Source of the DNA: Acidobacteriota bacterium
GTDB taxonomy: Bacteria; Acidobacteriota; CAIWXX01
DNA: 64,000 bases
Assembly (NCBI GenBank): GCA_040755995.1
Contig: JBFMAF010000026.1
Location: 130,360-194,359, forward strand
Direction of reading: 5' to 3'
Shown here: positions 21,504 through 48,451 of the stretch, in pieces
Numbering within the stretch: position 1 is the stretch's first letter
Layout of the letters: each line of letters opens with the position of its first letter
Made by a program: the position numbers and the translations under genes
The notes under the pieces: model-generated
What the model saw: only the letters and a program-made list of their open reading frames with translations
What the model was told of the DNA's origin: nothing
Database searches by the model: none

Positions 21504-21661
21504 GTTCAGAGATTAGCAGCCCAGCGCTTCAGCACGCAAGGCACTCTGCTCAAGATTAACACGATTTAATTCGCTCTTAAGGGTCCTTTCATCCGCGGGT
21601 GTTAGCTTTCAGGTATGAAACCAACCCGGGAAACGTACGAACTCCCCGAGGAGGACGGACG

Positions 21662-22243
21662 ATGGTAGACCAACGAGACATAGTGCTGGAAGCGGGAGCA
21701 AAGCACGACTTCATCGACGAGCTGCTCGCGGTGCCGGGCGGCGAGGCGATACGCGACTGCATCCAATGCGGCACGTGCAGCGGCTCTTGCCCCGTTTCCT
21801 ATTTTATGGACAACACGCCGCGGAAGCTCTTCGCCATGATCCGCGCGGGGCTGCGCGACCGGGTGCTTGAGAGCGCAAGCCTATGGTTGTGCACGTCGTG
21901 CTACACGTGCACCTTGCGCTGCCCAAGGCAGATAGCCGTGACCGACATCATCTACGCGCTCAAGCGGCTCGCGATGAAGGAGGGCAAGGGGGCCGGCGCG
22001 GCGAAGGCAGTGGCGCTGGCCAGCTCGTTCGTCGCCGTCGTCGATCGCCGGGGCCGCAACTATGAGCCCGAGCTGCTGATACGCTACTACCTGAAGACGA
22101 ACCCGGCGGCCTTCGTGAACCAGGCCGGACTGGGCATGAAGCTGCTGGGACGGGGGCGCTTCCCATTGAAGGGTGAGAAGATACACGGCCTCGACCAGAT
22201 CCGCACGATTATCGCCAAGTCGCACGAAATCGGAGGTCTGTGA
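21662..22243 (+). CDS. hdrC: Heterodisulfide reductase subunit C (2x[4Fe-4S])
   Basis: CIQCGTCSGSCP and LWLCTSCYTCTLRCPR; RBS GGAGGA. Confidence 0.9.
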   Translation: MVDQRDIVLEAGAKHDFIDELLAVPGGEAIRDCIQCGTCSGSCPVSYFMDNTPRKLFAMIRAGLRDRVLESASLWLCTSCYTCTLRCPRQIAVTDIIYALKRLAMKEGKGAGAAKAVALASSFVAVVDRRGRNYEPELLIRYYLKTNPAAFVNQAGLGMKLLGRGRFPLKGEKIHGLDQIRTIIAKSHEIGGL

Positions 22244-23148
22244 TGCGTTTCGCATACTACCCGGGCTGCTCGCTGGAGGCAACGGGGCGAGCCTATGAGG
22301 AGTCCACATCGGCGCTTGCCAAGCCGCTGGGTCTCGATCTCAAGGAACTGGACGACTGGAACTGCTGCGGCGCAACATCGTACATGTCGGTGCGCGAGCT
22401 GCTGTCGTACTCGATCTCTGCCAGGAACCTCTGCCTTGCGCAGAAGCAGGGGCTGGATATTGTCGCGCCGTGCTCGGCCTGCTTCACCATCCTGCGGAAG
22501 ACCGATCATTACCTGCAGGAGATGCCCGAGCTGCGAAGAAAGGTGGAGAGTGTTCTGGGAGCTGCCGGCCTGTCCTACACGCCCGGCAGCGTGCGTGTCC
22601 GGCACCTGCTGGAGGTGATGACAGGGAACGGCGGCCTCGGCAAGATCCGCGACCTGGTGCGGAATCCGCTGAAGACTCTCAAGGTCGCTCCGTATTACGG
22701 CTGTCAGATCGTGCGCCCGCGGGTGGATTTCGACGACCCGGAATACCCGATGGTCCTGGACCGGGTGATCGAGGCGATCGGAGCGCAGGCGGTCTACTAT
22801 CCGGTGAAATCGCGCTGCTGCGGGGCGTCACTGATGGCGTCGAACGAACCCGCCGCGATCCGCCTCTGCAAGAACCTGTTGCTTTGTGCCCAGCAGAACG
22901 AGGCCGATTGCATCATCACTGTCTGCCCCCTCTGCCAGATGAACCTGGACGCGTTTCAGAACAAGGTGAACCTGAAGTATGGAACGCGCTTCAACATCCC
23001 TGTTCTTTACTTCACGCAGCTCGTGGGCCTGGCTTTGGGAATGCCGGCCGGGGCCGTGGGAATAGGCCGGGAGATCGTCCCGGCCGCTTCACTGCTGGGC
23101 CGGTACGCCGATACCCCGACGGCCCCAGCATCCGTTGCACACGCATGA
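22243..23148 (+). CDS. hdrB: Heterodisulfide reductase subunit B (two CCG domains)
   Basis: YYPGCS, WNCCG, PCSAC, YYGCQ, CCG, VCPLCQMNLD. Confidence 0.93.
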   Translation: MRFAYYPGCSLEATGRAYEESTSALAKPLGLDLKELDDWNCCGATSYMSVRELLSYSISARNLCLAQKQGLDIVAPCSACFTILRKTDHYLQEMPELRRKVESVLGAAGLSYTPGSVRVRHLLEVMTGNGGLGKIRDLVRNPLKTLKVAPYYGCQIVRPRVDFDDPEYPMVLDRVIEAIGAQAVYYPVKSRCCGASLMASNEPAAIRLCKNLLLCAQQNEADCIITVCPLCQMNLDAFQNKVNLKYGTRFNIPVLYFTQLVGLALGMPAGAVGIGREIVPAASLLGRYADTPTAPASVAHA

Positions 23149-23250
23149 TGAACAAGATCGTCCGCGAGCAGCACCGGCGAAGACAGACCGGATCGCGTGC
23201 GGGCCTCGCGCCCGCTCCAATCTTTCGCACCTGAAGAAGGAGGATAGACC

Positions 23251-24153
23251 ATGGCCGAACCAGGCGATAGCATAGCAGCGAACGAATCCACGATCGGCCA
23301 GGCGACCGACGGTCTCCGTATCGGCGTCTATGTCTGCCACTGCGGGACGAATATATCGGGCAAGGTCGACGTCGAGAACGTCTCGCGATACGCGGCCAAA
23401 CTGCCGGGTGTAGTGATCGCCAGGGACTATAAGTTCTTGTGCTCGGATCCCGGGCAGGATCTCATCATCAAGGACATACAGACATACAAACTCCAGCGCG
23501 TCGTGGTCTCTTCCTGCTCGCCCAGGATGCACGAGCCGACGTTCCGCGGAGCCTGCGGCCGGGCGGAGCTCAATCCGTTTCTGATGACCATGGCAAACAT
23601 CCGCGAACACTGTTCGTGGGTCACCGCAGATCCGACCGCGGCCACGGACAAAGCCAAAGCGCTGATACGAGGAGCAGTTGCGCGCGCGGCCAACCTGGAG
23701 CCTCTGCACGTGCGCGAAGTGCCGGTCGCACCGGCCGTGATGGTCATCGGCGGCGGAATCGCCGGTATCCAGGCGGCCCTGGACGTGGCAAGCGCCGGAA
23801 AGAAGGTCTATCTCGTCGAGAAGGAGCCGAGTATCGGCGGTCACATGGCGCAGTTCGACAAGACCTTCCCGACACTCGACTGCGCCGCCTGCATTCTGAC
23901 GCCCAAGATGGTCAACGTGGGCCAGAACCCGAATATCGAGCTTCTCACGTATAGCGAGGTCGAGGATGTGTCTGGATACATCGGCAACTTCAAGGTGCGC
24001 GTACGCAGGAAGGCCCGGTTCGTAGACGAGGACAAGTGTAACGGTTGCGGCGCGTGCTGGGAGGCCTGTCCCGCCAAACGAGTCCCGGCGACACGGGTGA
24101 TACGCAAGGGGAAGCTCGTCATCGGCCGGACGAAGCTACCCTCTGAAAGCTGA
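23251..24153 (+). CDS. hdrA: Heterodisulfide reductase subunit A, N-terminal half (split gene)
   Basis: IGVYVCHCGTNI, CSDPGQ, SCSPRMHE, NIREHCSW, GGGIAG, FPTLDCAACIL; ends after one CNGCGACWEACP motif. Confidence 0.92.
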   Translation: MAEPGDSIAANESTIGQATDGLRIGVYVCHCGTNISGKVDVENVSRYAAKLPGVVIARDYKFLCSDPGQDLIIKDIQTYKLQRVVVSSCSPRMHEPTFRGACGRAELNPFLMTMANIREHCSWVTADPTAATDKAKALIRGAVARAANLEPLHVREVPVAPAVMVIGGGIAGIQAALDVASAGKKVYLVEKEPSIGGHMAQFDKTFPTLDCAACILTPKMVNVGQNPNIELLTYSEVEDVSGYIGNFKVRVRRKARFVDEDKCNGCGACWEACPAKRVPATRVIRKGKLVIGRTKLPSES

Positions 24154-24189
24154 GTCATCACCAGATGATCCTGTTCACGGGAGCCGAAG

Positions 24190-24525
24190 ATGACGCTCGC
24201 AGACGTACGGGATATCCTGAGGGCGGAAATCCTCTGGGCGAACGATCTTACTACAGTCGTAGAATCGGTCGGGGCCGCCGACCTGATGAGCGACGTGCTG
24301 GCCCTCAGCAGACCGGGCATGCTGCTGCTTTCAGGGCTGCTCAGCGTGCAGACCATACGCACCGCGGCGGTGGCCGATCTGATTGGAGTCGTGTTCGTGC
24401 GCGGGAAGATTCCCGATTCGCAGATCGTCAGGGCGGCCGAGGAGGCCGGGGTGCCAATCATGAGCACAGCCTTCACAATGTTCGAGGCATCAGGCCTGCT
24501 TTACTGCGCGCTGAACCGGCGCTGA
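24190..24525 (+). CDS. DRTGG-domain protein
   Basis: AADLMSDVLA..LLSGL..IRTA..VFVRGK pattern. Confidence 0.85.
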   Translation: MTLADVRDILRAEILWANDLTTVVESVGAADLMSDVLALSRPGMLLLSGLLSVQTIRTAAVADLIGVVFVRGKIPDSQIVRAAEEAGVPIMSTAFTMFEASGLLYCALNRR

Positions 24526-24548
24526 GCAGGCCGCTGTGTGATGCCGGT

Positions 24549-24977
24549 ATGCAGATGGAGGAGTTCGAGCGGAGCTACACGATCACAGGAAGGGACTTCG
24601 TGAACGCAGGTCGGGCCTCTACGGCTGTCAAGGACATTCTCAAGGGAATGGGTGTCAGGGCCGATCTGGTGCGGCGCGCGGCGATTGCCGCATATGAGGC
24701 GGAGATGAACGTAGTGATGTATGCGAGTCGCGGCACAATGACGCTGCACGTGACCCCTTCGCGGCTGTTGATCGAGGTTGATGACGAGGGGCCCGGAATA
24801 GCGGATCTGGAGCTGGCGATGAAGGAGGGCTATTCCACTGCGACCCACGAGATGCGCGAAATGGGATTCGGCGCCGGAATGGGACTGCCGAATATCAAGA
24901 GGAACGCGCATGAGATGAGCATCCAGTCGGTCGTCGGTGTGGGCACGAAGCTCTCCGTTCAAGTGAGATTCGATTAG
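24549..24977 (+). CDS. RsbT/RsbW-like Ser/Thr kinase (anti-sigma regulatory factor, HATPase)
   Basis: AAIAAYEAEMNVV, DEGPGI, GYSTA, GFGAGMGLPNIK. Confidence 0.88.
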   Translation: MQMEEFERSYTITGRDFVNAGRASTAVKDILKGMGVRADLVRRAAIAAYEAEMNVVMYASRGTMTLHVTPSRLLIEVDDEGPGIADLELAMKEGYSTATHEMREMGFGAGMGLPNIKRNAHEMSIQSVVGVGTKLSVQVRFD

Positions 24978-24988
24978 AGGGGCATTCA

Positions 24989-26329
24989 GTGCAGGCTTAC
25001 TATCACTCGATTCGCTTCGACGCGGCCCGTTGCGACGGCTGCATGTCGTGCATGCGCGTCTGCCCCACGCGAGCGGTCCGAATCCGCAAAGGCGGCGCAG
25101 TGATGCTGGAGGATCGCTGCATAGACTGCGGTGAATGCATCAGGTCGTGCACGCGTGGAGCGGTGGTTCCGCTCACTGGAACGCTCGAGGATCTCTCCAG
25201 CTTCACGTACAAGGTGGCAATCCCATCACCGGCTCTCTATGCACAGTTCGATCCGGAAGTGACGCCCGGCATGATACTCGACGCGCTGAAGATCTGCGGG
25301 TTCGATGATGCAGTGAGTCTGTCGGCTTCCTGCGATGCCGTGGCGGCTGCCACTGAGCTGTTTCTCGACGAGTATCGCGGCCAGTATCCGTTGATATCCT
25401 CGTTCTGCCCGTCGGTAGTGCGGCTTATCCAGGTGCAGTACCCGGACCTGGTGGAGCAGCTGCTGCCCATATTGACTCCAAGGGAAATAGCCGCGCGGGA
25501 AGCCAAGGTGAAGAAGGAAGTGGATAGCGGCATCGACACGGAGCGAATCGGTGCCGTGTACATCACCCCCTGCCCCGCCAAGATGGTATCGATTGTCGAC
25601 CACCCGGGAATGGACAGATCCTACCTCGACTCTGCCGTCTCCATAAGAGACCTGTACCAGATCCTCGCCGCAGCCCTGGCGCAGAGCCAGGAACGCAAAG
25701 ATCGCGCAGGCGATGGCGAGACTGCGTCGGGCATTGCATGGGCCTATCTTGGAGCGTTGCCGATGTCGGTGCCCGCGGAGAACAGCATGTCCGTTGCCGG
25801 GCTTCCGAATGTAATCCGGATTCTGGACGACATAGAGAAGGGCCGGCTGCGAAGGTATTCGTTCGTTGAGTGTCACGCATGTCCTGAGGGGTGTGTCAGC
25901 GGCCCGCTGACCATCGAAAACCCTTACGTAGCGAGGGCCAGAGCGATCAGACTGTCCGGATCGCTGGAGAGGGCGGAGGCGGCCAGGAGTGAGCAGATTC
26001 TCCGGCTCTACCGTGAAGGTGCGTTCCTGATGAAACAGACGATCGGCGCCCGGCCGCACAAGCCGCTGGACACCGACATATCGCGCGCAATCGCCAAGAT
26101 GAAGGAAAAGGACCGGATCCGCGCCGGGCTGCCTGGGATTGACTGCGGGGCATGCGGTGCGCCGACGTGCGAGGCGTTTGCCGAGGACCTTGTCGAAGGA
26201 GAAACCGAAGCAGCCTCTTGTGTGTTCGTGCGCCAGCAACAGGTCAGCGAACTTGTCGAGAGGCTGGGCGTGCTTCTGAAGATCCATTCAGGCAGCGGCG
26301 AACGGCCGTCTGTGGGAGTACAGCAATGA
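24989..26329 (+). CDS. [FeFe]-hydrogenase-like Fe-S protein with degenerate H-cluster motifs (putative sensor)
   Basis: N-terminal 2x[4Fe-4S]; SSFCPS, TPCPAK, ECHACPEGCVSG; C-terminal DCGACGAPTC..C Fe-S domain. Confidence 0.82.
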   Translation: MQAYYHSIRFDAARCDGCMSCMRVCPTRAVRIRKGGAVMLEDRCIDCGECIRSCTRGAVVPLTGTLEDLSSFTYKVAIPSPALYAQFDPEVTPGMILDALKICGFDDAVSLSASCDAVAAATELFLDEYRGQYPLISSFCPSVVRLIQVQYPDLVEQLLPILTPREIAAREAKVKKEVDSGIDTERIGAVYITPCPAKMVSIVDHPGMDRSYLDSAVSIRDLYQILAAALAQSQERKDRAGDGETASGIAWAYLGALPMSVPAENSMSVAGLPNVIRILDDIEKGRLRRYSFVECHACPEGCVSGPLTIENPYVARARAIRLSGSLERAEAARSEQILRLYREGAFLMKQTIGARPHKPLDTDISRAIAKMKEKDRIRAGLPGIDCGACGAPTCEAFAEDLVEGETEAASCVFVRQQQVSELVERLGVLLKIHSGSGERPSVGVQQ

Positions 26330-26676
26330 GGGTTGCCGACATTGCACCCATGTTGAACGGAACAATCGTCGGCGGCATCGAAGCTGCGGACAAGGAAGCC
26401 AACGGGGGCTATGTTTCTGATCTACTCTCGGACGTCATGGGCAACGCCAATGCAGGCGACGTCTGGGTGACAATCCAGAAGCACGTGAACACGATCGCAG
26501 TCGCGCATCTCCGGGATATCGCCGCAATCGTGCTGGCGAACGGGAGGCAACCGGAGGACGAGACGGTGCGGCGGGCCGCAGAGGAACAGGTGCCCGTCAT
26601 CCTCACCCAGCTGCCGGTCTTCGACGTAGCTGGAATTCTGTACGGGGTGGGTTTGCGCGGGGGGAGGAAGCCCTGA
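26326..26676 (+). CDS. DRTGG-domain protein
   Basis: GGYVSDLLSDVMGNA..VWVTIQKHVNTIAVA; ATGA overlap. Confidence 0.85.
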   Translation: MRVADIAPMLNGTIVGGIEAADKEANGGYVSDLLSDVMGNANAGDVWVTIQKHVNTIAVAHLRDIAAIVLANGRQPEDETVRRAAEEQVPVILTQLPVFDVAGILYGVGLRGGRKP

Positions 26677-26678
26677 AG

Positions 26679-28040
26679 GTGTTTACACTGGACACGCATA
26701 TGCACACTTGCCTCTCCCCGTGTGCAGATCTGGACATGCACCCGACTGCCATCGTCGCCACGGCGATACAGGCCGGACTGGACGGCATCGTGGTGTGCGA
26801 CCATAACTCGGCCGAGAACCTGGCTGCGGTCCAGCGGGCCGGGCAACGGGTGGGGCTCTCCGTTCTGGCTGGGATGGAGATTGCGAGCGCCGAAGAGGTT
26901 CATGTGGTGGCACTGCTGCCTGACCTCGAAGCTGCTCTGAAATTGCAACGGCGGGTCTACGCGGAGCTGCCCGGTAAGAATGACGAAGAGGCGTTCGGGA
27001 TGCAGGTTGTAGCCGGTGAAGACGGCGAGGTGCTCGGCTTCAATCAGCGTCTCCTGATCGGCGCTACCACCATGAGCGTCGAGGAAGTCGTCGCGGCAAT
27101 CCACGATGCCGGTGGAGTCGCAGTGGCGGCGCACGTCGATCGCGAAGGTTTCGGGATCATCGGTCAGCTCGGCATGATACCCCCCGGGCTGGCGCTGGAC
27201 GCACTGGAGGTCTCGAGGCTCACGCCGCTGTCCGTCGCCCGCCTGAAGTACGTTCCTTCGGGCGAGCTCCCGCTGCTCTGCGGCTCGGATGCCCACGAAC
27301 CGAAGTTCGTCGGAACAGCGGTGACCTTCATGCTGCTGCAGGAACCGACTTTTGCCGAAGTGAATGCGGCCCTCGCGGAGAAGAGCGGCAGGACGGTTCT
27401 TGGTGGAGGCAGGCCGATGGAAGATCTTTCAATGCACATCCTCGACATCGCGCAGAATTCGATCGAGGCCGGAGCCTCTTCCGTCGAGATCAGCCTCGTC
27501 GAAGACATTGCGCGCGACCTGCTCGAGATCGAAGTGCGCGACGACGGGAAGGGCATGGACCCTGAGACGATCGCGAAGGTCGCCGACCCCTTCTTCACCA
27601 CGAGAACGACACGAAAGGTGGGGATGGGTCTGGCGTTCCTCGCACAGGCCGCGCAGGCTGCGGGCGGCGAGTTGTCAATCAAGTCGGAACCCGGGCAGGG
27701 GACTCGCGTGAAAGCGTCCTTCGGCCTGAGTCACATAGACCGCGCGCCGATCGGAGACGTCGAGACTACGCTGATGGTGCTTCTGGCAGGACACGACAAC
27801 GTCGATCTCACGTTCAGGCATTCAATCGGCGGGCGGGAGTTCTCGCTGTGTACGGCGGATCTGAAGGAGGCCGCCGGGGGTGGACCGCTTTCCACACCGG
27901 CGGGTCTCGCGCTGCTCCGGCAGGCCATTCGCCTCGGCGAGTCATCCTTGCGCGAGCCGGATCCGGCGAGGCAGACCCGGCGACCAGGAAATCAGACGGC
28001 GGCTTCACTGGAGGTCAACAATGAATATCGAGACCGGTAG
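26679..28040 (+). CDS. PHP-domain phosphoesterase fused to a HATPase (histidine-kinase-like) domain
   Basis: DTHMHTCLSPC, CDHNS, AHVDR, GSDAH, followed in frame by MEDLSMHILDIAQNS..DDGKGM..DPFFTTR..GMGL. Confidence 0.85.
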   Translation: MFTLDTHMHTCLSPCADLDMHPTAIVATAIQAGLDGIVVCDHNSAENLAAVQRAGQRVGLSVLAGMEIASAEEVHVVALLPDLEAALKLQRRVYAELPGKNDEEAFGMQVVAGEDGEVLGFNQRLLIGATTMSVEEVVAAIHDAGGVAVAAHVDREGFGIIGQLGMIPPGLALDALEVSRLTPLSVARLKYVPSGELPLLCGSDAHEPKFVGTAVTFMLLQEPTFAEVNAALAEKSGRTVLGGGRPMEDLSMHILDIAQNSIEAGASSVEISLVEDIARDLLEIEVRDDGKGMDPETIAKVADPFFTTRTTRKVGMGLAFLAQAAQAAGGELSIKSEPGQGTRVKASFGLSHIDRAPIGDVETTLMVLLAGHDNVDLTFRHSIGGREFSLCTADLKEAAGGGPLSTPAGLALLRQAIRLGESSLREPDPARQTRRPGNQTAASLEVNNEYRDR

Positions 28041-28518
28041 GGTCAGCGAGATCGCAATGCGGCATGGGAGGAGGCGGGAGCACATCATTGCTATCCTGCT
28101 GGATTGCCAGGAGGAGTTCCTGCACTTGCCCAGGCAGGTAATCGAAACGGTGGCCAAGGACGTCGGCGCTCCTGTTTCGACCGTCCTCGGCATCGCCACG
28201 TTCTTCAGGGCTTTCAGCCTCAAGCCGGTGGGGCGCTACCCGATTCATGTTTGCATGGGCACGGCCTGCCACGTGCAGGGCGCTCCGAGGCTGTTGGAGG
28301 CGCTGGAGAGGGAGATTGGCGTGAAGAGGGGCGAGACCACGTCGGACATGGCATTCAACCTCGACACCGTCAACTGCCTCGGCTGCTGCGGTCTGGCTCC
28401 AGTGATCAACGTCGGCAAGGATGTTCACGGCAAGCTCAAGCAGTCGGCCATACCACGTCTCGTCAAGACGTATCGGGCCAAGTTTGCCAGGGAGGCGGAG
28501 GTGAAGGGCCATGCCTAA
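28021..28518 (+). CDS. nuoE: NuoE/HydC-like [2Fe-2S] subunit
   Basis: VCMGTACHVQG and VNCLGCCGLAPV. Confidence 0.92.
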   Translation: MNIETGRVSEIAMRHGRRREHIIAILLDCQEEFLHLPRQVIETVAKDVGAPVSTVLGIATFFRAFSLKPVGRYPIHVCMGTACHVQGAPRLLEALEREIGVKRGETTSDMAFNLDTVNCLGCCGLAPVINVGKDVHGKLKQSAIPRLVKTYRAKFAREAEVKGHA

Positions 28519-28894
28519 ACTCACGATCGAGGATCTGAAGAGGATCAGCGAGCAGGCCAAAGCCACGATGACACTCCGCTCGGGCACCGCCCGCGCAAAG
28601 GTGACCGTCCACATGGGAACGTGCGGGATCTCGGCAGGAGCGCGCGAGGTGATGGCGGCGCTGTTGAAGGAGATCGAGACGGGCGGAGTGACCGATGTAC
28701 TGGTAGGCACTTCGGGTTGTGCAGGGTTATGCAGTCGCGAACCGATGGCGACTGTCGAGATCCGGGGCCAGCCGCCGGTGAAGTACGTGGACCTCTCGCC
28801 TGAGAAGATGGGCCAGGTATTCCGGAAACACGTCATGGGCGGGACGATCTTGATGGAGTACGCGCTGGCAGCGGGGAGCGAAACGACCGGTTGA
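28511..28894 (+). CDS. Thioredoxin-like [2Fe-2S] ferredoxin (HydD/HndB-like)
   Basis: VHMGTCGISAGA, SGCAGLCSREP. Confidence 0.85.
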   Translation: MPKLTIEDLKRISEQAKATMTLRSGTARAKVTVHMGTCGISAGAREVMAALLKEIETGGVTDVLVGTSGCAGLCSREPMATVEIRGQPPVKYVDLSPEKMGQVFRKHVMGGTILMEYALAAGSETTG

Positions 28895-28913
28895 CGGCCG
28901 GGGAGGAGTGCAT

Positions 28914-30737
28914 ATGGCATACCGTACACACGTTCTGATTTGTGGCGGAACGGGATGCGTCTCGAGCGGCTCGTTCGAATTGCGCGGCGTCTTCACGGCC
29001 GAACTGCAGAAACAGGGTCTCGCCAAGGAAGTGCAGGTCATCATCACGGGGTGCCAGGGATTCTGCGCCGAGGGGCCGATCATGATCGTGCAACCGGACG
29101 GGGTCTTCTATTGCGGCGTCCAGAAGAAGGACATACCCAACCTGGTCACCGAACACCTGCTGAAAGGCCGGCCGGTGAAGAAGCTGATGTATACGCCGCC
29201 GGTCGAGAAGGTGCCGATCCCGGCGCTCAAGGACATCCCGTTCTTCGCGAAGCAACGGCTGGTGGTCTTGCGCAACCGCGGGTTGATCGATCCGGAGCGG
29301 ATTGACGACTACATCGCCGTAGGCGGCTACACCGCCCTGGTCAAGGCGCTTACGGAGATGACGCCGGAAGATATCATTTCCGAGATCAAGAGGTCTGGTC
29401 TGAGAGGCCGCGGTGGAGGCGGATTCCCGGCGGGCATCAAATGGGAAACATGCCGGCGCGCGGCGCAGAAGCGCGGGGTAGCGCCGGTGGTGGTCTGCAA
29501 CGCCGATGAGGGCGATCCCGGCGCCTTCATGGACCGCAGCATCATCGAATGCGACCCGCATTCGGTGGTGGAGGGGATGATCATCGGCGCATCCGCCATC
29601 GGCTGCAGTGAAGGGTTCGTCTACATCCGCCACGAGTACCCCATCGCGCGCGAGCGGTTGCTGAAGGCGCTGGAACAGGCCCGCGACTACGGGCTGCTGG
29701 GCAACGACATCCTGGGCACGGGACTGAACTTCGACATCGAAATCGTCCAGGGGGCCGGCGCCTTCGTCTGCGGAGAGTCCACTGCGCTCATGGCGTCGCT
29801 CGAGGGCAAGATCGGCGAGCCGAGGGCCAAGTACATCCATACGGTGGAGTACGGTTACAAGAACCAGCCCACGAATCTCAACAACGTGGAGACCTGGGCG
29901 AATGTGCCCTTGATCGTGAATCGCGGGGCGGGCTGGTTCTCGTCGATGGGGACCGGGGACGTGGCTGAGAATCCGTGGGGCGGGAGCAGCGGGACGAAGG
30001 TGTTCTCGCTGGTCGGCAAGGTCAACAACACCGGGTTGATAGAAGTCCCCATGGGGATCTCATTGCGCGAGATCATCTTCGATATCGGCGGAGGCATTCC
30101 GGGAGGCAGGGAGTTCAAGGCTGTGCAGACGGGTGGTCCCTCCGGCGGCTGCCTCCCGAGCTCGCTGCTGGACATGCCCGTCGATTTCGACAGCCTCACC
30201 GAAGCGGGCTCCATGATGGGCTCCGGCGGCATGATCGTGATGGATGACCACACGTGCATGGTGGATGTCGCGAGGTACTTCATCAACTTCCTCACGGAGG
30301 AATCCTGCGGCAAGTGCATACCCTGTCGCGAGGGACTGCGGCATTCCCTTCGGATACTCAACAACATCAGCGACGGAAACGGGCGGCCGGAAGACGTGGA
30401 TCTCTTGCAGGAAATGGGCGAGGTGATGCAGGACAGCTGCCTGTGCGCGCTGGGCACTTCGGCTCCAAACCCCGTCCTCTCCACCCTCCGCTACTTCAAG
30501 GGCGAGTACGAAGCGCACATCAAGGACCACAGGTGTCCGGGGGGCGTCTGCAAGGCGCTGGTTGAATACTCGATCGATCAGCAGTTGTGCGACGGCTGCC
30601 ACGCCTGCGTGCCTGCCTGTTCGACGCAGGCGATCACCGGCAAGGTCAAAGAGAAGCACACTCTGGACAAGACGAAGTGCATCAAGTGCGGCGCCTGTAT
30701 TGAGGTTTGCAAGCGCGAAGCCGTACTGCGGGTCTAG
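28914..30737 (+). CDS. nuoF: NuoF/HydB-like FMN/NAD(H) subunit with N-terminal [2Fe-2S] and C-terminal 2x[4Fe-4S] domains
   Basis: GLRGRGGGGFP, NADEGDPGAFMDR, FVCGESTAL, GGPSGG, ESCGKCIPCREG, CALG, two C-terminal CxxCxxC motifs. Confidence 0.95.
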   Translation: MAYRTHVLICGGTGCVSSGSFELRGVFTAELQKQGLAKEVQVIITGCQGFCAEGPIMIVQPDGVFYCGVQKKDIPNLVTEHLLKGRPVKKLMYTPPVEKVPIPALKDIPFFAKQRLVVLRNRGLIDPERIDDYIAVGGYTALVKALTEMTPEDIISEIKRSGLRGRGGGGFPAGIKWETCRRAAQKRGVAPVVVCNADEGDPGAFMDRSIIECDPHSVVEGMIIGASAIGCSEGFVYIRHEYPIARERLLKALEQARDYGLLGNDILGTGLNFDIEIVQGAGAFVCGESTALMASLEGKIGEPRAKYIHTVEYGYKNQPTNLNNVETWANVPLIVNRGAGWFSSMGTGDVAENPWGGSSGTKVFSLVGKVNNTGLIEVPMGISLREIIFDIGGGIPGGREFKAVQTGGPSGGCLPSSLLDMPVDFDSLTEAGSMMGSGGMIVMDDHTCMVDVARYFINFLTEESCGKCIPCREGLRHSLRILNNISDGNGRPEDVDLLQEMGEVMQDSCLCALGTSAPNPVLSTLRYFKGEYEAHIKDHRCPGGVCKALVEYSIDQQLCDGCHACVPACSTQAITGKVKEKHTLDKTKCIKCGACIEVCKREAVLRV

Positions 30738-30757
30738 GGCTCACGGAGGAGTTGGCC

Positions 30758-32506
30758 ATGAAAGTAGTGAAGCTGAAAGTCGATGGCGTCGAGACTGAAG
30801 CCGAAGACCGAACATCGCTTCTGACGGTTACCAAGAAGCTCGGCATCAAGGTCCCGACCTTGTGCTACCACCCGATCATCGAGCCTGCAGGCGTCTGCCG
30901 GATCTGCACGGTGGAGGTTCGGATGCGCAATCGGGTCCGATTGGTGACAGCGTGCAACTACCCCGTGAGCGAAGGGATCGAGGTGTTGACGAATTCCGAG
31001 CGTGTCCGCCGGACCCGCAGGCTGATCATTGAATGGCTGCTTTCCCGCTGCGGGAACGTCAAGGTGTTGAACGATCTTGCGGCCGAATATGGGATCACGG
31101 AGCCGAGGTTCGGACGGGGCGATGAGGACTGCATCCTGTGCGGCCTCTGCGTGCGCGTCTGTTCGGATGTCGTCGGCAGGCACGTCCTGGGCTTCTTCAA
31201 CCGCGGCACTACTCGCGAAGTCAACACACCGTACGGCGAGACTAGCGAGGAGTGCATTGCGTGCGGGGCCTGCGCATACGTCTGCCCGACCGGATGCATC
31301 ACGATCCAGGATGAGGAGAAGCTGGTGCGGCAGGAGCTGCCGATGGGCCCGATCACTCCAATATCCATCCCATTCATGCAGGCGGTCCCCGCAGTGCCCG
31401 TCATCGACAAGGCGAGCTGCGTCTACTTCAAGACCGGTGGATGCCAGGTGTGCAAGTCGGTTTGCGAGAAACAGGCCATCGAACACACCGCTGATGACAA
31501 GCTTGTCGAATTCGAAGTCGGCAGCATCATCGCCGCCACCGGTTTCCAGTCAATGGATCCGACCAGACTCTCACAGTACGGATACGGCCGGCTTGGAAAC
31601 GTGTTCACGGCGCTGGAATTCGAGAAGCTGAACAACGCGTCGGGGCCGACTGGCGGAAGGATCCTGATGGCCGACGGCAGGGCTCCGGAGAGCGTGGCGC
31701 TGCTGCACTGCGTCGGCAGCCGCGACAAGAACTACCACGAATACTGTTCGCGCGTCTGCTGCATGATGGCCCTCAAGTATGCCCACCTCATTCACGAGAA
31801 AACCGGGGCGGCCGTCTACGATTTCTTCATCGATCTCCGCTGCTTCGGCAAGGGCTACGAGGAGTTCTACAACCGGCTGCTCGAAGAGGGGGTCTTCTTC
31901 ATCCGGGGTCGAGCCGGTGAGGTTTCTGACTTCGCGATCTATGAAGAAGAGCGGGGGAAGCTCATCGTTCGGTGCGAAGACACGCTCATCGGCGTCGTGC
32001 GGCGGATCCCGGTGGACATGGTCGTCCTCATGACCGCTCTGGAACCGGCGAATGACGCCAACAATGTTGCGAGGCTGCTGAACATCTCGTGCAGCAAAGA
32101 CAGTTTCTTCCTGGAACAGCATCCGAAACTGGCGCCCGTGGCCACACCGACCGACGGCGTGTTCATCGCCGGAGCCTGCCAGGGTCCTAAGGACATCCCG
32201 GACGCGGTCGCGCAAGCCTCCGCCGCCGCCTCGGCGGCCATCTCGCTGTCCGTCCGTGGAAGAGTCGAGATCGAACCGGTTACCTGTGTGGTGGATGGCG
32301 AGCGGTGCGCTGCATGCCGTATATGCAACACGCTCTGCCCGTTCACAGCCATCAGCTTCGACATCGAGAAAGATGCGTCCGTCATCAACGACGCGCTGTG
32401 CAAGGGGTGCGGCACCTGCGCGGCGGCCTGCCCGAGCAGCGCAATCACCGCGCGGCATTTCAACGACCGGCAGCTGCTCAACGAAATCGCGGGGGTGTGT
32501 GCATGA
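30758..32506 (+). CDS. hdrA: Fusion of a HydA/NuoG-type N-terminal Fe-S arm ([2Fe-2S]+2x[4Fe-4S]) with the HdrA C-terminal half
   Basis: PTLCYH..GVCRICTVE..LVTAC; CILCGLCVRVC; CIACGACAYVCP; then IPFMQAVP, VGSIIAATGF, NASGPTGG, CVGSRD..YCSRVCC, GKGYEEFY, GACQGPKDI, C-terminal ferredoxin. Confidence 0.9.
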   Translation: MKVVKLKVDGVETEAEDRTSLLTVTKKLGIKVPTLCYHPIIEPAGVCRICTVEVRMRNRVRLVTACNYPVSEGIEVLTNSERVRRTRRLIIEWLLSRCGNVKVLNDLAAEYGITEPRFGRGDEDCILCGLCVRVCSDVVGRHVLGFFNRGTTREVNTPYGETSEECIACGACAYVCPTGCITIQDEEKLVRQELPMGPITPISIPFMQAVPAVPVIDKASCVYFKTGGCQVCKSVCEKQAIEHTADDKLVEFEVGSIIAATGFQSMDPTRLSQYGYGRLGNVFTALEFEKLNNASGPTGGRILMADGRAPESVALLHCVGSRDKNYHEYCSRVCCMMALKYAHLIHEKTGAAVYDFFIDLRCFGKGYEEFYNRLLEEGVFFIRGRAGEVSDFAIYEEERGKLIVRCEDTLIGVVRRIPVDMVVLMTALEPANDANNVARLLNISCSKDSFFLEQHPKLAPVATPTDGVFIAGACQGPKDIPDAVAQASAAASAAISLSVRGRVEIEPVTCVVDGERCAACRICNTLCPFTAISFDIEKDASVINDALCKGCGTCAAACPSSAITARHFNDRQLLNEIAGVCA

Positions 32507-32931
32507 GCTTCGAACCGAAGATCGTGGGAATCCTGTGCAACTGGTGCTCCTACACCGGCGCAGACCTGGCGGGCACCGCCAGGATCCAGTACGCGCCCAA
32601 CGTTCGAGTGGTCCGCGTGATGTGTTCCGGCCGCGTCGACCCGTCCTTCGTGCTGAAGGCGCTCCAGTGCGGCGCCGACGGGGTCCTGATCGCCGGCTGC
32701 CACCTTGGCGACTGCCACTATCAGTCGGGCAACTACAAGACGATGCGCCGCTTCGCGCTGATGAAGCGCGTGCTCGCTCAGCTGGGCGTCGAGCCCGACA
32801 GGGTGCGGCTGGAATGGGTCAGCGCATCGGAAGGTGAGCGCTGGGCGGCGGTCGTCAACGACATGACCGAGAAGGTGCGCGCCCTGGGCCCATTCACCTC
32901 GGGCGACGGCAACAACGCGTTGGGGGCCTGA
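32503..32931 (+). CDS. mvhD: MvhD [2Fe-2S] hydrogenase/Hdr linker subunit
   Basis: CNWCSYTGADLAG, RVMCSGRVD, GCHLGDCHY, WVSASEG. Confidence 0.95.
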   Translation: MSFEPKIVGILCNWCSYTGADLAGTARIQYAPNVRVVRVMCSGRVDPSFVLKALQCGADGVLIAGCHLGDCHYQSGNYKTMRRFALMKRVLAQLGVEPDRVRLEWVSASEGERWAAVVNDMTEKVRALGPFTSGDGNNALGA

Positions 32932-32953
32932 CCCGATGGACGGCACGAGCACC

Positions 32954-33002
32954 GCGAACCGTGAACCAGGAACCGGGAACCTTGAACCGGGAACCTTGAA
33001 CC
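32954..33002. repeat. Heptamer tandem repeat (NNGAACC)x7
   Basis: gcgaacc gtgaacc aggaacc gggaacc ttgaacc gggaacc ttgaacc. Confidence 0.85.
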
Positions 33003-33027
33003 GATGTAGAGGCAGGGAGGTGTTCCC

Positions 33028-33996
33028 ATGGGCAAACTGAAACTCGCGCTTTACTGGGCCGGAGCCTGCGGAGGCTGCGACGTCTCCGTGCTGGACACCA
33101 ACGAGCGAATTCTAAAGATCGCCGAGCTGGCCGATCTGTTGCTCTGGCCGATCGCCCTGGACTTCAAGTATCACCACATCGAAGCGCTCCCCGACGAGCA
33201 CATCGACGTCTGCCTTTTCAACGGAGCAATTCGCAATTCGGAGAACGAACACCTCGCGAAGCTGCTGCGGCAGAAGTCGAAGGTGATGGTCGCGTACGGA
33301 TCGTGCGCGCACCTGGGCGGCATCCCCGGGCTGGCGAATTTCTCCACGCGGAGAGACATCCTCCATCACGTCTACATGGACAGCGCCTCGACTGTGAATC
33401 CCGGGGGCACAGTTCCACTGGAGAAGACCGCCCTTCCCATCGGGGACCTCGAGCTGCCGAAGTTCCACTATGAGGTGCACTCCCTCGACCAGGTCGTTCC
33501 CGTCGACTACTACCTTCCCGGCTGCCCGCCCGCTGTGGACCAGGTCTGGGCGGCGATCGAGGCCATTGCCACGGACAAGTTGCCCGCGGCGGGATCGGTG
33601 GTGGGCGCTGACCAGGTGGCGCTTTGCGACAAATGCACGAGAAAGAAGTCCGAGAAGCGGATAAAAGAGTTCAAATCGATCGCCCAGGTGATTCCGGACC
33701 CGGAGATCTGCTTCCTCGAACAGGGCATCGTCTGCTGCGGTCCCGCGACTCGAGCGGGATGCGGCGCCCCCTGCATCAATGCCAACATGCCGTGTCGCGG
33801 CTGCTACGGCCCGGCACCGGACGTGCCGGACATGGGCGGAAAGCTGCTGTCGGCGATCGCGTCGGTGATCGATTCGGATGATCCGGCTGAGATCGACCGC
33901 ATCGTGGCTCAGATCGAGGACCCGGCGGGGACGTTCTACCGGTTCAGCCTGCCGAGCTCGCTCCTCTCCGGCACGCAACAGAAGGAGGCCGCATGA
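33028..33996 (+). CDS. mvhG: Group 3c [NiFe]-hydrogenase small subunit
   Basis: ACGGCD, YGSCAHLGG, LPGCPP, CFLEQG..CCGPATRAGC..C..PCRGCYG. Confidence 0.93.
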   Translation: MGKLKLALYWAGACGGCDVSVLDTNERILKIAELADLLLWPIALDFKYHHIEALPDEHIDVCLFNGAIRNSENEHLAKLLRQKSKVMVAYGSCAHLGGIPGLANFSTRRDILHHVYMDSASTVNPGGTVPLEKTALPIGDLELPKFHYEVHSLDQVVPVDYYLPGCPPAVDQVWAAIEAIATDKLPAAGSVVGADQVALCDKCTRKKSEKRIKEFKSIAQVIPDPEICFLEQGIVCCGPATRAGCGAPCINANMPCRGCYGPAPDVPDMGGKLLSAIASVIDSDDPAEIDRIVAQIEDPAGTFYRFSLPSSLLSGTQQKEAA

Positions 33997-35453
33997 AACG
34001 CATCACGATCGATCCCATCACACGCCTCGAGGGGCACGGCAAGATCGAGATCTTCCTGGACGATACCGGAGAGGTCGCGGATGTGTACTTCCAGGTGCCC
34101 GAGCTGCGCGGATTCGAGAAGTTCTGCCAGGGACGGCCCGTGTGGGAATTGGCTTCGATTGTTCCCAAGATCTGCGGCGTCTGCCCGGGGGCTCATCACC
34201 TGGCCGCGGGCAAGGCGATCGATGCCGTTTACAAAGTGGATCCGCCGCCCGCGGCGAAGAAGCTGCGGGAGCTCTTCTACTCTGCCCACTACGTGCACAG
34301 CCACATTGCGCACTTCTACGCCCTGGCGGCGCCCGACTTCGTCGTCGGCCCGACGGCCGATCCCGCTCAGCGCAACATCCTCGGCGTTGTGGCGAAAGTC
34401 GGGCTCGAGCTCGGTGGCGCCGTGATCGCCCACCGCAAGATGGCCCAGGAGATTCAAGCCACGCTGGCCGGCCATCAGACCCACACGCGATGGTGCGTCC
34501 CAGGCGGAGTGAGCAGGGGAATAACCGAAGCGCAACGCCTCGAAGTCGTCGAAAAAGCGATCTCGTGTCTCGAGTTCGCCAAGACCTCGATAAAGATCTT
34601 TGACGACGTCGTCCTGAAGAACAAGGAGTACGTCGACCTGATCCTCTCCGATGCCTACTCGCTCACCACGCACTACATGGGACTGGTGGACGACAACAAC
34701 AGGGTGAACTTCTACGACGGCAAGGTCCGAGTCGTCGACACGGCCGGAAAGGAGATCGTCAAGTACGCTCCCGCCGAGTACCTGAATCATGTCGGCGAGC
34801 ACGTGGAAACCTGGTCATACTTGAAGTTCCCATTCCTGAAGGCGAAGGGCTGGAAGGGGTTGGTGGACGGGCAGGACTCCGGCGTCTACCGGGCTGCGCC
34901 GCTCGCGCGGCTCAATGCCGCCGACGGAATGGCCACACCGCTCGCTCAGCAGGAGTACGACAAGTTCTTCCAGACACTCGGCGGCAAGCCGGTTCACGCT
35001 ACGCTCGCTCAACACTGGGCTCGAATCGTCGAGCTTGCGTATGCCTCGGAGCGGCTGCTGGAACTGGCGAATGACCCGGAGGTGGCAAGTCCAAACGTCC
35101 GCTGCCTGCCACAGGCGACACCGCACGAGGGGGTCGGGATCGTCGAGGCGCCCAGAGGCACGCTGACCCATCACTACGTCACCGACGAGCGTGGAATGAC
35201 GACGAACGTGAACCTGATCGTCGGCACCACCAACAACCACGCTCCGATCTGCATGTCGATCAAGAAGGCGGCCAAAGGCCTGATCAAACGCGGGAAGGAG
35301 ATCACGGAGGGGACGCTCAACATGATCGAGATGGCCTTCCGCGCATACGACCCGTGCTTCTCATGCGCCACGCACAGTCTGCCCGGCCGCCTGCCTTTCG
35401 AGGTTGTCGTGCGGGAGCCGGATGGCTCGATTGCGCATGTCGCAAAGAGATAA
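33993..35453 (+). CDS. mvhA: Group 3c [NiFe]-hydrogenase large subunit
   Basis: TRLEGHG, L1 KICGVC, EAPRGTL.HHY, L2 RAYDPCFSCATH plus a cleavable C-terminal extension. Confidence 0.93.
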   Translation: MKRITIDPITRLEGHGKIEIFLDDTGEVADVYFQVPELRGFEKFCQGRPVWELASIVPKICGVCPGAHHLAAGKAIDAVYKVDPPPAAKKLRELFYSAHYVHSHIAHFYALAAPDFVVGPTADPAQRNILGVVAKVGLELGGAVIAHRKMAQEIQATLAGHQTHTRWCVPGGVSRGITEAQRLEVVEKAISCLEFAKTSIKIFDDVVLKNKEYVDLILSDAYSLTTHYMGLVDDNNRVNFYDGKVRVVDTAGKEIVKYAPAEYLNHVGEHVETWSYLKFPFLKAKGWKGLVDGQDSGVYRAAPLARLNAADGMATPLAQQEYDKFFQTLGGKPVHATLAQHWARIVELAYASERLLELANDPEVASPNVRCLPQATPHEGVGIVEAPRGTLTHHYVTDERGMTTNVNLIVGTTNNHAPICMSIKKAAKGLIKRGKEITEGTLNMIEMAFRAYDPCFSCATHSLPGRLPFEVVVREPDGSIAHVAKR

Positions 35454-35681: not shown

Positions 35682-36233
35682 ATGCAAGAGCGTGTACTGG
35701 TCCTGGGGCTTGGGAATCCGATACTGACGGATGATGCGGTCGGATTGCTGGTCGCGCGCGAGGTTCGGCAGCGGATCGGCTCAGGTGTCCACGTCGCCGA
35801 AGCGTCGGTCGCCGGTTTCGATCTGATCGAGGCGTTCTCGGGATACGATCGTGTGATCGTGATCGACTCGATCCGGACGCCCGGCGGCAGCCCCGGTGCA
35901 GTGTATCTCCTCGCTTCTGAGGACCTGCCAGCCACCGAACGCCTCACCGGGGCTCACGAGATCGACCTGGCTACGGCAATCGCCTTGGGGCGCAGGCTGG
36001 GCCTGCACATGCCGCACACGGTCCGCATCGTGGCCGTCGAGGTCCAGGACAACCGAACGTTCGGCGAATCGTGCACTCCGGAGGTCGCACGCTCGATCGA
36101 CTCGGCTGTGGAGCTCGTCCTGGATGAGATTCTCTTCAAGAGTCGTCGACTAATCCGCTCGCGGATCGAAACATGCAATCGGGGCGCCATATCAGCCCTG
36201 CAAAGAAGGGAGGTCGAAAGTGCCCGCCCCTGA
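35682..36233 (+). CDS. [NiFe]-hydrogenase maturation endopeptidase (HyaD/HybD type)
   Basis: VLGLGNPILTDDAVG, VIVIDS, AHEIDL. Confidence 0.9.
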   Translation: MQERVLVLGLGNPILTDDAVGLLVAREVRQRIGSGVHVAEASVAGFDLIEAFSGYDRVIVIDSIRTPGGSPGAVYLLASEDLPATERLTGAHEIDLATAIALGRRLGLHMPHTVRIVAVEVQDNRTFGESCTPEVARSIDSAVELVLDEILFKSRRLIRSRIETCNRGAISALQRREVESARP

Positions 36234-37257
36234 ACACCTGAAGATCTTCGAAACAGCAGCCGAGGTGCTCAACTCTCCGGCGGAAGTGCCGGAGATGCTT
36301 CGGGCCATCTCGAACGCGATCGCCCGCGGCATGTCCATCAAAGGATGCCAGTTCTTCCTGCTGAGCCGGGACCAGCGGGTGCTGGAGCCGATTGCTTCAT
36401 CAGGGTTGAGCGAGGCGTTCGCGAACCAGGAGTCGGTGGAGATGAATCGCATGCTGCGCGAGATCCTGCAAGGCCAGCCGGTCTCCGTGCGCGACTGCAC
36501 TACCGATCCCCGTATCCATCGCTCGCTGGCCTATAGCGTCGAGGGCATCCGATCGACGCTCTGGATACCGTTGAAGAGCCGCGGGCAGGTCATCGGAGCG
36601 ATGCAGCTGACGACCGCGGATGTGCACGAGTTTTCGGAAGAGGAGATCGAGGTCGCGCGCGTCGTCGCGGCCGTCTGCGCCAGTCTCATCCTGCGGTCGA
36701 TGTTCCAGAGGATCGTGAGCGGCGTGTCTGACACAGTGCGTCATTCGTTGGACGTCGACGAGGTGCTCAAGCGGATCGTCCGCGTGATCACCGAGGACCT
36801 TCGCGCCAAAGGCTGCCTCATCCGGCTGATCGACCCGGACACGAATCGTCTTGAGCTGCGCGCGGCCTACGGCCTCAGCGAAGCCTACCTGCAGAGCGGC
36901 CCGCGCGACGCCGCGAAAGCAACGGCGGAGGTGCTGGAGGGTAAGCCGGTGTTCTTCCTCGACGCCGGGCAGTATCTGCAGTACGCGGAAGATGCAAGAC
37001 GCGAGGGCATCGCATCGCTGCTGAGCGTGCCGTTGATGATCCACGGCAAGTCAATCGGCGTGCTGCGAGTCTACACGTACAAGCCGTACGAGTTCTCGGA
37101 GGAGGAGATCCATCTGATGAAGATGGTGGCCGAGCAGTGCGCGTTGCTCATCAAGAACGCGCAGCTCTACAGCGGCATGAAAGAGCGGTACCAGCAGCTG
37201 ATCGGCGATTTCCACGAGTGGTTCGACCGCTTCTACGGGCCGGGAGGTATGAGGTAG
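36220..37257 (+). CDS. Tandem GAF-domain protein with no output domain
   Basis: Two repeats of KGC..L..L..A..GLSE..EGI.S.L.VPL..G..IG.. Confidence 0.88.
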   Translation: MPAPEHLKIFETAAEVLNSPAEVPEMLRAISNAIARGMSIKGCQFFLLSRDQRVLEPIASSGLSEAFANQESVEMNRMLREILQGQPVSVRDCTTDPRIHRSLAYSVEGIRSTLWIPLKSRGQVIGAMQLTTADVHEFSEEEIEVARVVAAVCASLILRSMFQRIVSGVSDTVRHSLDVDEVLKRIVRVITEDLRAKGCLIRLIDPDTNRLELRAAYGLSEAYLQSGPRDAAKATAEVLEGKPVFFLDAGQYLQYAEDARREGIASLLSVPLMIHGKSIGVLRVYTYKPYEFSEEEIHLMKMVAEQCALLIKNAQLYSGMKERYQQLIGDFHEWFDRFYGPGGMR

Positions 37258-37260
37258 CCC

Positions 37261-41072: not shown

Positions 41073-41626
41073 GCTTGAAGGAAGAAATAGCCTCACGGTT
41101 GCACGGCCGCGTCGTGGTCTTCGGGATCGGCAACCCGGAACGGGGCGATGACGGAGCCGGCAGCGCCGTGGCGCGATCGGTCGAGGCCAGGAACGGCATC
41201 CGCGTCTTCGACGCCCAGGATGTCCCCGAAAACTACCTCGGGCCCATCGTCGCCGCACGACCGGACACGGTGATGCTTATCGATTCTGTGGACATGGGTG
41301 CCCCTCCGGGCTCCATAACCATTCTCACCAAGAACGACCTCGCCGGCTACTGGCCGTCCACCCACCGGATACCGCTCTGTCTGCTGATGAACTACCTGGA
41401 AAGGGAGACCGGAGCCGACGTCTTCCTGGCCGGAATCCAGCCGGCCCACCTGGAATTCGGCCGTCCGATGTGCGAGACAATACGCCGCGCCGCGGGGGAA
41501 TTAGCGGCGATTATTGATCACGCAGTCGCGACACAGCAGCACGAACCTGCGCTTTCCGAAGCGCCCGAATGCGGCCTCTGGACACGGATGCGATACGTCC
41601 TGCATGGCAGCGCCAGCAGCGGATAG
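41069..41626 (+). CDS. hycI: Hydrogenase maturation endopeptidase, HycI type
   Basis: GIGNPERGDDGAG, VPENY, IDSVDMG..PG, STHRIPL, GIQP. Confidence 0.88.
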   Translation: MSLKEEIASRLHGRVVVFGIGNPERGDDGAGSAVARSVEARNGIRVFDAQDVPENYLGPIVAARPDTVMLIDSVDMGAPPGSITILTKNDLAGYWPSTHRIPLCLLMNYLERETGADVFLAGIQPAHLEFGRPMCETIRRAAGELAAIIDHAVATQQHEPALSEAPECGLWTRMRYVLHGSASSG

Positions 41627-45255: not shown

Positions 45256-45258
45256 GGG

Positions 45259-48444: not shown

Positions 48445-48451
48445 GGGAACG

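Follow-up and report, generated by a model that had tools for sequence, protein, structure and literature searches.

Closest described systems

The described complexes closest to the locus reported here are the methanogen MvhAGD-HdrABC complexes (5ODC, 8RVU, 7BKB), the class II benzoyl-CoA reductase (BCRII) complex Bam[(BC)2DEFGHI]2, the type III HdrA/HdrL proteins and the Bfu enzymes. The locus lies in a 64,000-nucleotide (nt) stretch of DNA from an Acidobacteriota bacterium (GCA_040755995.1, contig JBFMAF010000026.1, positions 130,360 to 194,359), called the window below, and runs through 15 genes from hdrC (21662) to a hydrogenase maturation protease gene (36233), every one on the + strand. 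In it, hdrA is broken and its second part is fused to a BfuA-type arm. In the methanogen complexes, the low-potential electron runs through HA3, HA5 and HA6 to MvhB (PMC13580544), leaving by way of the inserted ferredoxin domain (PMC13518236). BamI of BCRII delivers electrons to the C-terminal ferredoxin and BamF, and the low-potential output is supplied from the inserted ferredoxin; BCRII is the only structurally solved dual-bifurcation complex that we found, and its authors call the coexistence previously unreported (bioRxiv 10.64898/2026.04.10.717634). Type-2 BfuA proteins have the A1, A2 and A4 clusters only, with separate catalytic subunits (Schut 2022, PMC9304861). Mvh-Hdr, Hnd/Nuo and HdrA inserts are treated separately in the available sections of PMC12590816, PMC7509429, PMC5109826, PMC9012536 and PMC6085437, and an Hdr/Mvh-Bfu type is absent from the Bfu classification section of Schut 2022 (PMC9304861). 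Our literature search, with survey supplements (such as the 1558 BfuB of Schut 2022) outside its coverage, returned no description of a split-HdrA/Bfu layout.

With the methanogen MvhAGD-HdrABC complexes, the locus shares the hdrCBA-mvhDGA order, the E356/K409 pair and CxxC pair of HdrA, the His/Asp of MvhD and the HdrB motifs, and with the Mvh-Hdr-MvhB-Fmd supercomplexes (PMC13580544, PMC13518236) a probable wire docked on the inserted ferredoxin. It differs from them in that HdrA is not a single chain but is split at the inserted ferredoxin and fused to the arm, and in place of a polyferredoxin running to Fmd, the wire would be this covalently fused BfuA arm, with a second flavin module at its end. 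CoM-S-S-CoB is the acceptor in MvhAGD-HdrABC; here the disulfide may be another one, and the host looks bacterial. Like Bam, the locus brings together an HdrA-type flavin adenine dinucleotide (FAD) module and a HydBC/Bfu flavin mononucleotide (FMN) module, a three-cluster Type-2 BfuA arm and an MvhD-like adaptor. Unlike in Bam, HdrA is split instead of doubled and HdrB keeps both non-cubane sites, and none of the Bam hallmarks (BamBC tungsten module, doubled BamE, input-side Bfu, disrupted distal BamD cluster) was found in the operon. In Bam, Bfu lies upstream (from BamI to the C-terminal ferredoxin, BamF and FAD) and BamBC is supplied by the inserted ferredoxin, whereas here Mvh would be the input. 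The analogy to Bam drawn in the first-pass annotation, which was made from this DNA alone, thus holds for the parts but not for the wiring, since Bfu stands at the inserted-ferredoxin exit here and at the C-terminal, MvhD-like input in BCRII. The operon is probably of the dual-bifurcation kind, with a topology inverted relative to BCRII.

Type III HdrA/HdrL proteins (PMC12054007, PMC9012536) likewise have the loop of their inserted ferredoxin occupied by an NAD(P)H module. Their insert is one in-frame FAD domain; the one here interrupts the chain and is an FMN module of several genes with bifurcation features. No in-frame GltD/NfnB domain was found here by Pfam and NCBIfam scans. Type-2 Bfu enzymes such as Wor-Bfu (9MQX), and NiFe-Bfu HydABCSL (7T2R), share the BfuBC core with the locus. 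Unlike in these enzymes, the third substrate would be the low-potential output of another bifurcating enzyme, and the hydrogenase would not be docked on BfuA.

Two gene products are predicted to re-form one HdrA

The hdrA(N) gene (23251..24153) encodes a 300-residue protein with the N-terminal cluster domain, the FAD-binding GxGxxG, a conserved CxxC pair (C211/C214), one ferredoxin motif and a conserved tail of about 20 residues. It covers residues 1-256 of 777 in the HdrA2 profile and aligns to about residues 5-258 of the solved HdrA 5ODC, ending just past the first CxxCxxCxxxCP of the inserted ferredoxin, and the break of hdrA falls within this ferredoxin. The orphan motif (residues 263-274, 24037..24072) is one half of the split ferredoxin; 39 of 40 homologues have it, as the only inserted-ferredoxin motif of the chain, followed by the conserved new tail. 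The other half is found in the fusion protein, 582 residues in a single open frame. Its residues 1-185 (30758..31312) align with BfuA/HydA/NuoG arms, and residues 161-580 with HdrA, starting at the inserted ferredoxin; the two matches overlap at 161-186 because the last ferredoxin motif of the arm aligns with the first inserted motif of HdrA. Residues from about 195 to 582 (31340..32506) carry the second inserted-ferredoxin motif (C221-C236), the C-part of the FAD domain, E289 and K340, a four-Cys cluster site and the C-terminal 2x[4Fe-4S] ferredoxin. The third-codon-position G+C content is alike before and after the junction (0.78 and 0.80). In a 2x[4Fe-4S] ferredoxin, the ligands of each cluster come from both motifs. 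With one motif per chain, the clusters must therefore take their ligands from both chains. Mapped via the 5ODC alignment, E289/K340 are the E356/K409 described as the bifurcating-HdrA signature (PMC12054007), and they are invariant (38/38). The first-pass annotation had placed the FAD-binding C-half of HdrA in the fusion: the C-part of the FAD domain is indeed there, but the domain is split, and its GxGxxG is in HdrA(N).

The arm has motifs for one [2Fe-2S] and two [4Fe-4S] clusters and lacks the A3 motif, which is the Type-2 BfuA set. However, it is extended by the HdrA half, a Type-1-like trait, and so fits neither type cleanly. Aligned to solved BfuA-type arms over fusion residues 5-186, it is closest to 9MQX_A (Wor-Bfu), on which the predicted arm superposes at 1.7 Å root-mean-square deviation over 181 columns. 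For this superposition only the arm was taken, the single-chain AlphaFold model of the fusion being poor overall (predicted template modelling score 0.41), with a predicted local distance difference test (pLDDT) value below 50 at residues 187-214 (the junction), 248-259 and 453-507. The first reading of this protein, a HydA arm with its H-domain replaced by HdrA, was right on the missing H-domain, but the absent A3 motif and the closeness to 9MQX_A point to a Type-2 BfuA. A HydA-derived [FeFe] enzyme, including a Group A3 bifurcating [FeFe]-hydrogenase, is ruled out: the fusion has neither H-domain nor A3 motif, and HydG was not found in the host genome (99.8% complete).

To see whether the two halves fold together, HdrA(N) and the fusion were modelled as a pair, a form of the structure prediction that the first-pass annotation had put forward. 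The heterodimer scored 0.80 against 0.00 for the best control, at a mark reached by 51 of 78 solved pairs versus 2 of 108 mismatched ones. The runs share at least 95% of contacts, and the partner pLDDT is at least 88. The orphan motif of HdrA(N) lies in the predicted interface, together with arm residues 39-40 and some of 124-185, for which solved HdrA offers no counterpart; the pass arises partly from likeness to solved HdrA. Sequence and model together show HdrA as a protein predicted to be made as two chains, which together would rebuild its FAD domain and its inserted 2x[4Fe-4S] ferredoxin.

The layout is conserved in many genomes

The junction is crossed by full-length homologues: among the matches listed, 117 of the 119 other homologue clusters span 99-100% of the fusion at 56-73% identity. 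The few clusters with source labels come from Acidobacteriota, Aminicenantes, Deltaproteobacteria, Dehalococcoidia and Pseudomonadota. When the junction was used as a query, matches were found in 25 of 400 other genomes of the phylum (one of them partial, at a contig edge), with none in the two closest family members, and in 8 of 301 genomes of a second phylum, that of a Desulfobacterales record. At least 26 fusions were found among the 79 metagenome loci listed, and a single junction query against genome contigs gave 2 true loci only, so that the named taxonomy is thin.

Gene order was compared in 55 fusion loci, made up of 27 regions (taken from 23 of the 25 matching genomes), of L002 and L003, and of the metagenome loci; each count was taken only over loci with enough flank. 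Upstream of the fusion, nuoF adjoins directly in 51/52, and nuoE is present in 41/43, the thioredoxin (Trx) gene in 30/43, the hdrA N-piece in 35/35 and hdrB in 34/34. Downstream, mvhD follows in 44/50, mvhG in 37/43 and mvhA in 34/40. The synteny that the first-pass annotation asked to check is found across genomes. The identities of the N-half and the C-half co-vary (r = 0.90, 37 split loci). Four metagenome loci encode an HdrA(N)-NuoE fusion, and four tandem-type loci encode one with a shorter HdrA(N) piece. In L097, HdrA(N), the ferredoxin of the arm and HdrA(C) are in one chain, and nuoEF are absent.

Some loci vary in their input side or in BfuB. L038 (223-7024) has mvhD followed by genes for a formate dehydrogenase alpha subunit (over the cut-off), a formate transporter and FdhD-like proteins, without mvhGA. 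A swap of formate dehydrogenase for hydrogenase is known from methanogens. The replacement of mvhGA by formate dehydrogenase and transporter genes in L038 suggests that MvhD is a swappable input. L045, L048 and L068 have no mvhD after the fusion and a convergent cluster of Hyp, protease and group-3b-like hydrogenase genes instead. In L042, L051-L054, L056, L066 and L067, BfuB is 1021-1056 residues long; that of L053, the only long one scanned, has a C-terminal GltD/NfnB-like domain, which would be a third flavin in the same complex.

Functional residues of the Hdr, Bfu and Mvh modules

Pfam and NCBIfam scans confirmed the identities of HdrC, HdrB, the HdrA N-part, NuoE, NuoF, MvhD, MvhG, MvhA and the protease. 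The gaps between genes from hdrC to mvhA are -20 to +102 nt; that from mvhA to the protease gene is 228 nt. The genes named in the first-pass annotation are present and co-directional, and their names match the families found, except for a family-less 127-residue Trx-like protein, the product of the HydD/HndB-like thioredoxin-fold gene (28511..28894). This protein had no Pfam or NCBIfam match, and its name as a Trx-ferredoxin rests on its position and on three Cys kept in 34/34 homologues.

In the Hdr part, HdrC (21662..22243) has two [4Fe-4S] sites, their 8 Cys being kept in 39-40 of 40 homologues, and HdrB (22240..23148) has two complete CCG (non-cubane) motifs with all 10 Cys invariant (39/39). 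In the Bfu part, the [2Fe-2S] site of NuoE/BfuC (28021..28518) is kept. NuoF/BfuB (28908..30737) keeps the Cys of its N-terminal [2Fe-2S] Trx domain, the FMN/NAD site, the B1 cluster and the C-terminal 2x[4Fe-4S], and its B2-site residues C450, H537, C543 and C548 are each found in 47/47 homologues. In A. mobile the ligands of this site are C438, H525, C531 and C536, and C476 is often Thr (Schut 2022, PMC9304861). A/E232, M234, GGPSG and F367 have been given as bifurcation criteria (Losey 2020, PMC7311640). In this BfuB, GGPSG (G409-G413) and A206 are kept in 47/47 and M208 in 43/47, and both candidate positions for F367 (286 and 344), placed without direct alignment to T. maritima HydB, are Phe. 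The best solved relatives of BfuB are all bifurcating (7T2R_B gives 765 bits, the top match among short non-bifurcating types 351). In the Mvh part, MvhD (32503..32931) has H67 in 44/44 and D70 in 42/44 homologues, and MvhG (33028..33996, the small hydrogenase subunit), MvhA (33993..35453, the large [NiFe] subunit, with both CxxC motifs) and the protease (35682..36233) follow. The set known from MvhAGD-HdrABC (group 3c) is present, with hdrABC, mvhDGA, the Ni-binding CxxC, the protease and HypF, hypF being the sole hyp gene searched. As far as sequences can tell, the bifurcation residues are retained in both the HdrA and the Bfu modules.

A proposed two-stage electron path

The first-pass annotation had proposed one complex joined through one fusion protein. 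The conserved synteny, the kept residues, the HdrA(N)-NuoE fusions and the predicted heterodimer make a single Mvh-Hdr-Bfu complex, probably functional, very likely, but it would be joined by two interlocked HdrA halves. The same evidence (synteny, bifurcation residues, HdrA(N)-NuoE fusions and heterodimer) supports the idea of two flavin sites, the HdrA FAD and the HydB/BfuB FMN, in one complex. With the arm joined to HdrA inside the inserted ferredoxin and MvhDGA behind the C-terminal one, Bfu would stand downstream of HdrA, the reverse of BCRII. As in established structures, electrons from H2 would pass through MvhD to the HdrA FAD, which would send a high-potential electron to HdrCB and on to a disulfide (RSSR) and a low-potential electron to the inserted ferredoxin. 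We propose that at this exit the BfuA arm would stand in for MvhB/FmdF and pass the low-potential electrons to BfuB, which would split them between NAD(P)+ and ferredoxin (Fd). The net reaction would be 4 H2 + 2 RSSR + NAD+ + 2 Fd(ox) -> 4 RSH + NADH + 2 Fd(red), and it should be reversible.

To estimate what this would bring, potentials of -280 mV (NADH), -500 mV (Fd) and -140 mV (disulfide) were assumed, with -200 mV as a sensitivity value for the disulfide. The demand at the exit would then be about -390 mV, the mean of NADH and Fd, versus -500 mV, so that Fd could be reduced at about 1-10 Pa H2 versus about 70-700 Pa. The calculated equilibrium H2 of the model drops from 66 to 0.9 Pa with the disulfide at -140 mV and from 686 to 9.5 Pa at -200 mV; with Fd at -450 mV, the calculated gain in H2 threshold is 27-fold. 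Under the cascade model, the usable H2 level may be lowered about 30-70-fold. A soluble Mvh-Hdr-Bfu supercomplex, in which two unrelated bifurcating modules work in series, HdrA first and Bfu second, is the reading we favour by a little. We hold more tentatively, at just under an even chance, the wider picture: a widespread two-stage cascade (HdrA, then Bfu) with clusters shared between chains, by which anaerobes would gain low-potential ferredoxin from H2 at about 1-10 Pa or from dilute formate, and in which the inserted-ferredoxin loop is a plug-in socket for a multi-gene Bfu cassette that entered it more than once, passed by recombination from one hdrA gene to another and was removed again.

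Several observations weigh against a series of two bifurcations. Coupled confurcation and bifurcation was not measurable in vitro even for BCRII, and NADH alone reduced 68% of BamGHI (bioRxiv 10.64898/2026.04.10.717634). In BfuB, the motif Met is lost in 4/47 relatives, the NuoE-fused subtype; the position of the fifth B2 ligand is Ser488 here, a minority state (3/47); and the CGEE motif has Ser in place of its second Glu (291; 23/47), which bears on NAD versus NADP. MvhA has a Lys before its first Ni-binding CxxC (34161-34184), where most homologues have Arg. Finally, mvhD does not adjoin the fusion in 6/50 loci, most tandem-type loci have no neighbouring mvhGA, and no disulfide partner common to the relatives was found, with dsrA in 0/24 and DsrC-family proteins over the cut-off in 12/24.

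Some of these points would fit one complex with a single bifurcation, in which NuoEF would be an NAD(P)H port on the inserted ferredoxin, functionally like HdrL/type III HdrA, linking H2, disulfide and NAD(P)H without free ferredoxin. In L127 and L129, GltD-type inserts do occupy the inserted-ferredoxin loop, lying between its two motifs, as described for type III HdrA (PMC12054007, PMC9012536), and both the NuoE-fused subtype without the motif Met and the reduction of most of BamGHI by NADH alone agree with such a port. However, BfuB retains the Trx Cys, the A-x-M, GGPSG, the B2-site Cys/His and the C-terminal 2x[4Fe-4S], and its best solved relatives bifurcate, which makes a plain port unlikely.

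Equally improbable in our view is that the complex runs in reverse or free of H2: Bfu would confurcate NADH and Fd(red), joined at the HdrA FAD by electrons from thiols, giving H2 in fermenters and syntrophs, or the HdrB acceptor would be reduced, Mvh being optional. The 0/24 count of dsrA indicates that most relatives are not sulfate reducers, and this, the loci without adjoining mvhD and the role of Bfu as a confurcating input in BCRII would suit that direction. On the other hand, H2 formation from thiols and NADH/Fd would be feasible only below about 1-10 Pa, MvhD-G-A in most loci and the formate dehydrogenase and transporter in one fit a donor input, and the host has sat, aprAB, qmoABC, dsrAB and dsrC, a disulfide sink. 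As to an assembly chimera or a dead insertion, with hdrA broken by a hyd operon and the pieces left as relics, the cassette does resemble a whole hyd-type operon minus the H-domain, but this reading is rejected as extremely improbable, since independent homologues cross the junction (117 full-length clusters among the matches listed), 55 further loci have the same order, the cofactor ligands are invariant and the new tail of HdrA(N) is conserved.

The disulfide acceptor

We looked for a disulfide that the cascade could reduce. The sat-apr-qmo-dsr pathway of the host (sat, aprAB, qmoABC, dsrAB and dsrC) means that a disulfide sink is available, and DsrC is a candidate for the disulfide in this genome only. 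The host also has a gene matching PRK12771 that we take to be DsrL-like. DsrC as a general substrate is unsupported, dsrA being found in 0/24 relatives and DsrC-family proteins in 13/24 (12 over the cut-off); the dsrA search of the relatives had no positive control genome, and the same model scores the host's own DsrA over the cut-off. On contigs C4, C8, C18, C20, C29, C34 and C43, the host genome (G000) has many other HdrA loci, two further Mvh hydrogenases, a Bam-like set (on C29) and the full sat-apr-qmo-dsr pathway (on C34). A protein with two tandem DsrC-family domains is encoded at G000:C25:2993-3625, adjoining a serine acetyltransferase gene.

Evolution of the insertion

The C-half tree, built on 93 rows, has fusion and intact HdrA intermixed, with 13 changes. 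Genomes of the host's phylum group with the labelled record L002, which fits an Acidobacteriota host. A single origin of the fusion was rejected by the approximately unbiased test (p-AU 1e-5) on the 54 of 93 rows that were left after 4 long-branch and 35 near-duplicate ones had been dropped, although recombination could give the same result. All trees were quick trees without bootstrap. The junctions of the 55 loci are window-like in 33, have a canonical HdrA loop in 9 and are unclassified in 13. The BfuB of the four HdrA(N)-NuoE loci form one clade (SH-aLRT 100), and their HdrA halves fall at three places among intact genes; the N-half of L110 is 82% identical to the intact L105. The intact L064 and L069 nest within fusions and have the fusion-type junction sequence. 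L064, L069 and L097 look like cassette losses. The trees suggest more than one entry of the cassette into hdrA, together with moves from one hdrA gene to another and occasional loss.

A tandem-HdrA version (1023-1094 residues) with nuoF directly upstream was found in 7 loci of the second phylum and in one more cut at a contig end. In L153-L160, L057 and L060, this version consists of the BfuA arm, HdrA(C) and a second HdrA unit.

Regulatory cassette and neighbouring genes

Between hdrA(N) and nuoE lie a DRTGG protein gene (24190..24525), a gene for a HATPase_c/anti-sigma-kinase-like protein (24549..24977), one for an [FeFe]-hydrogenase-fold Fe-S protein with Fe_hyd_lg_C and FeS domains (24989..26329), a second DRTGG gene (26326..26676) and a PHP phosphoesterase fused to HATPase_c (26679..28040), the DRTGG and PHP proteins being named by family scan. 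The cassette, presumably comparable to HydS/Hfs operons, is optional: scored through its PHP gene, it is present in 24/35 loci. Its hydrogenase-fold protein keeps the four H-cluster-site Cys and a Lys in 22/22, yet HydG was not found in the host genome and scored over the cut-off in only 5 of 24 relatives; the protein could sense redox without a mature H-cluster, as a possible maturase-independent sensor.

Upstream of hdrC, a divergent Cache/HAMP sensor kinase and a sigma-54 response regulator are encoded on the - strand (18068-21503); a scan of 21401-21700 for a sigma-54 -24/-12 motif found none. After the protease gene, the interval 36220-41626 encodes a double-GAF protein, an FdhA-like molybdopterin protein whose alignment with true FdhA lacks the catalytic Cys-His motif, an AsrA/AsrB-like pair and a second protease, a set that is not kept beside the operon in relatives. 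Further on, at 41790-50696 and on the same strand, are Hyf/Ech-like genes for a membrane-bound (group 4-type) hydrogenase, a possible user of reduced ferredoxin. At 57470-62725 lie two LptD-like outer-membrane protein genes in tandem, very similar to each other, whose name was given by eye on the basis of the list of open reading frames.

Significance

The layout is common, the junction having been matched in 25/400 genomes of the phylum and 8/301 of the second. As annotation pipelines name both halves 'HdrA', such genomes are probably mistaken for ones with an ordinary Mvh-Hdr and a piece of Hnd. The operon would offer a soluble system with H2 and NAD handles for probing the role of bacterial HdrABC and its disulfide. 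If the two-stage cascade is true, the H2 threshold would be about 30-70-fold lower, which bears on life in low-energy sediments and digesters.

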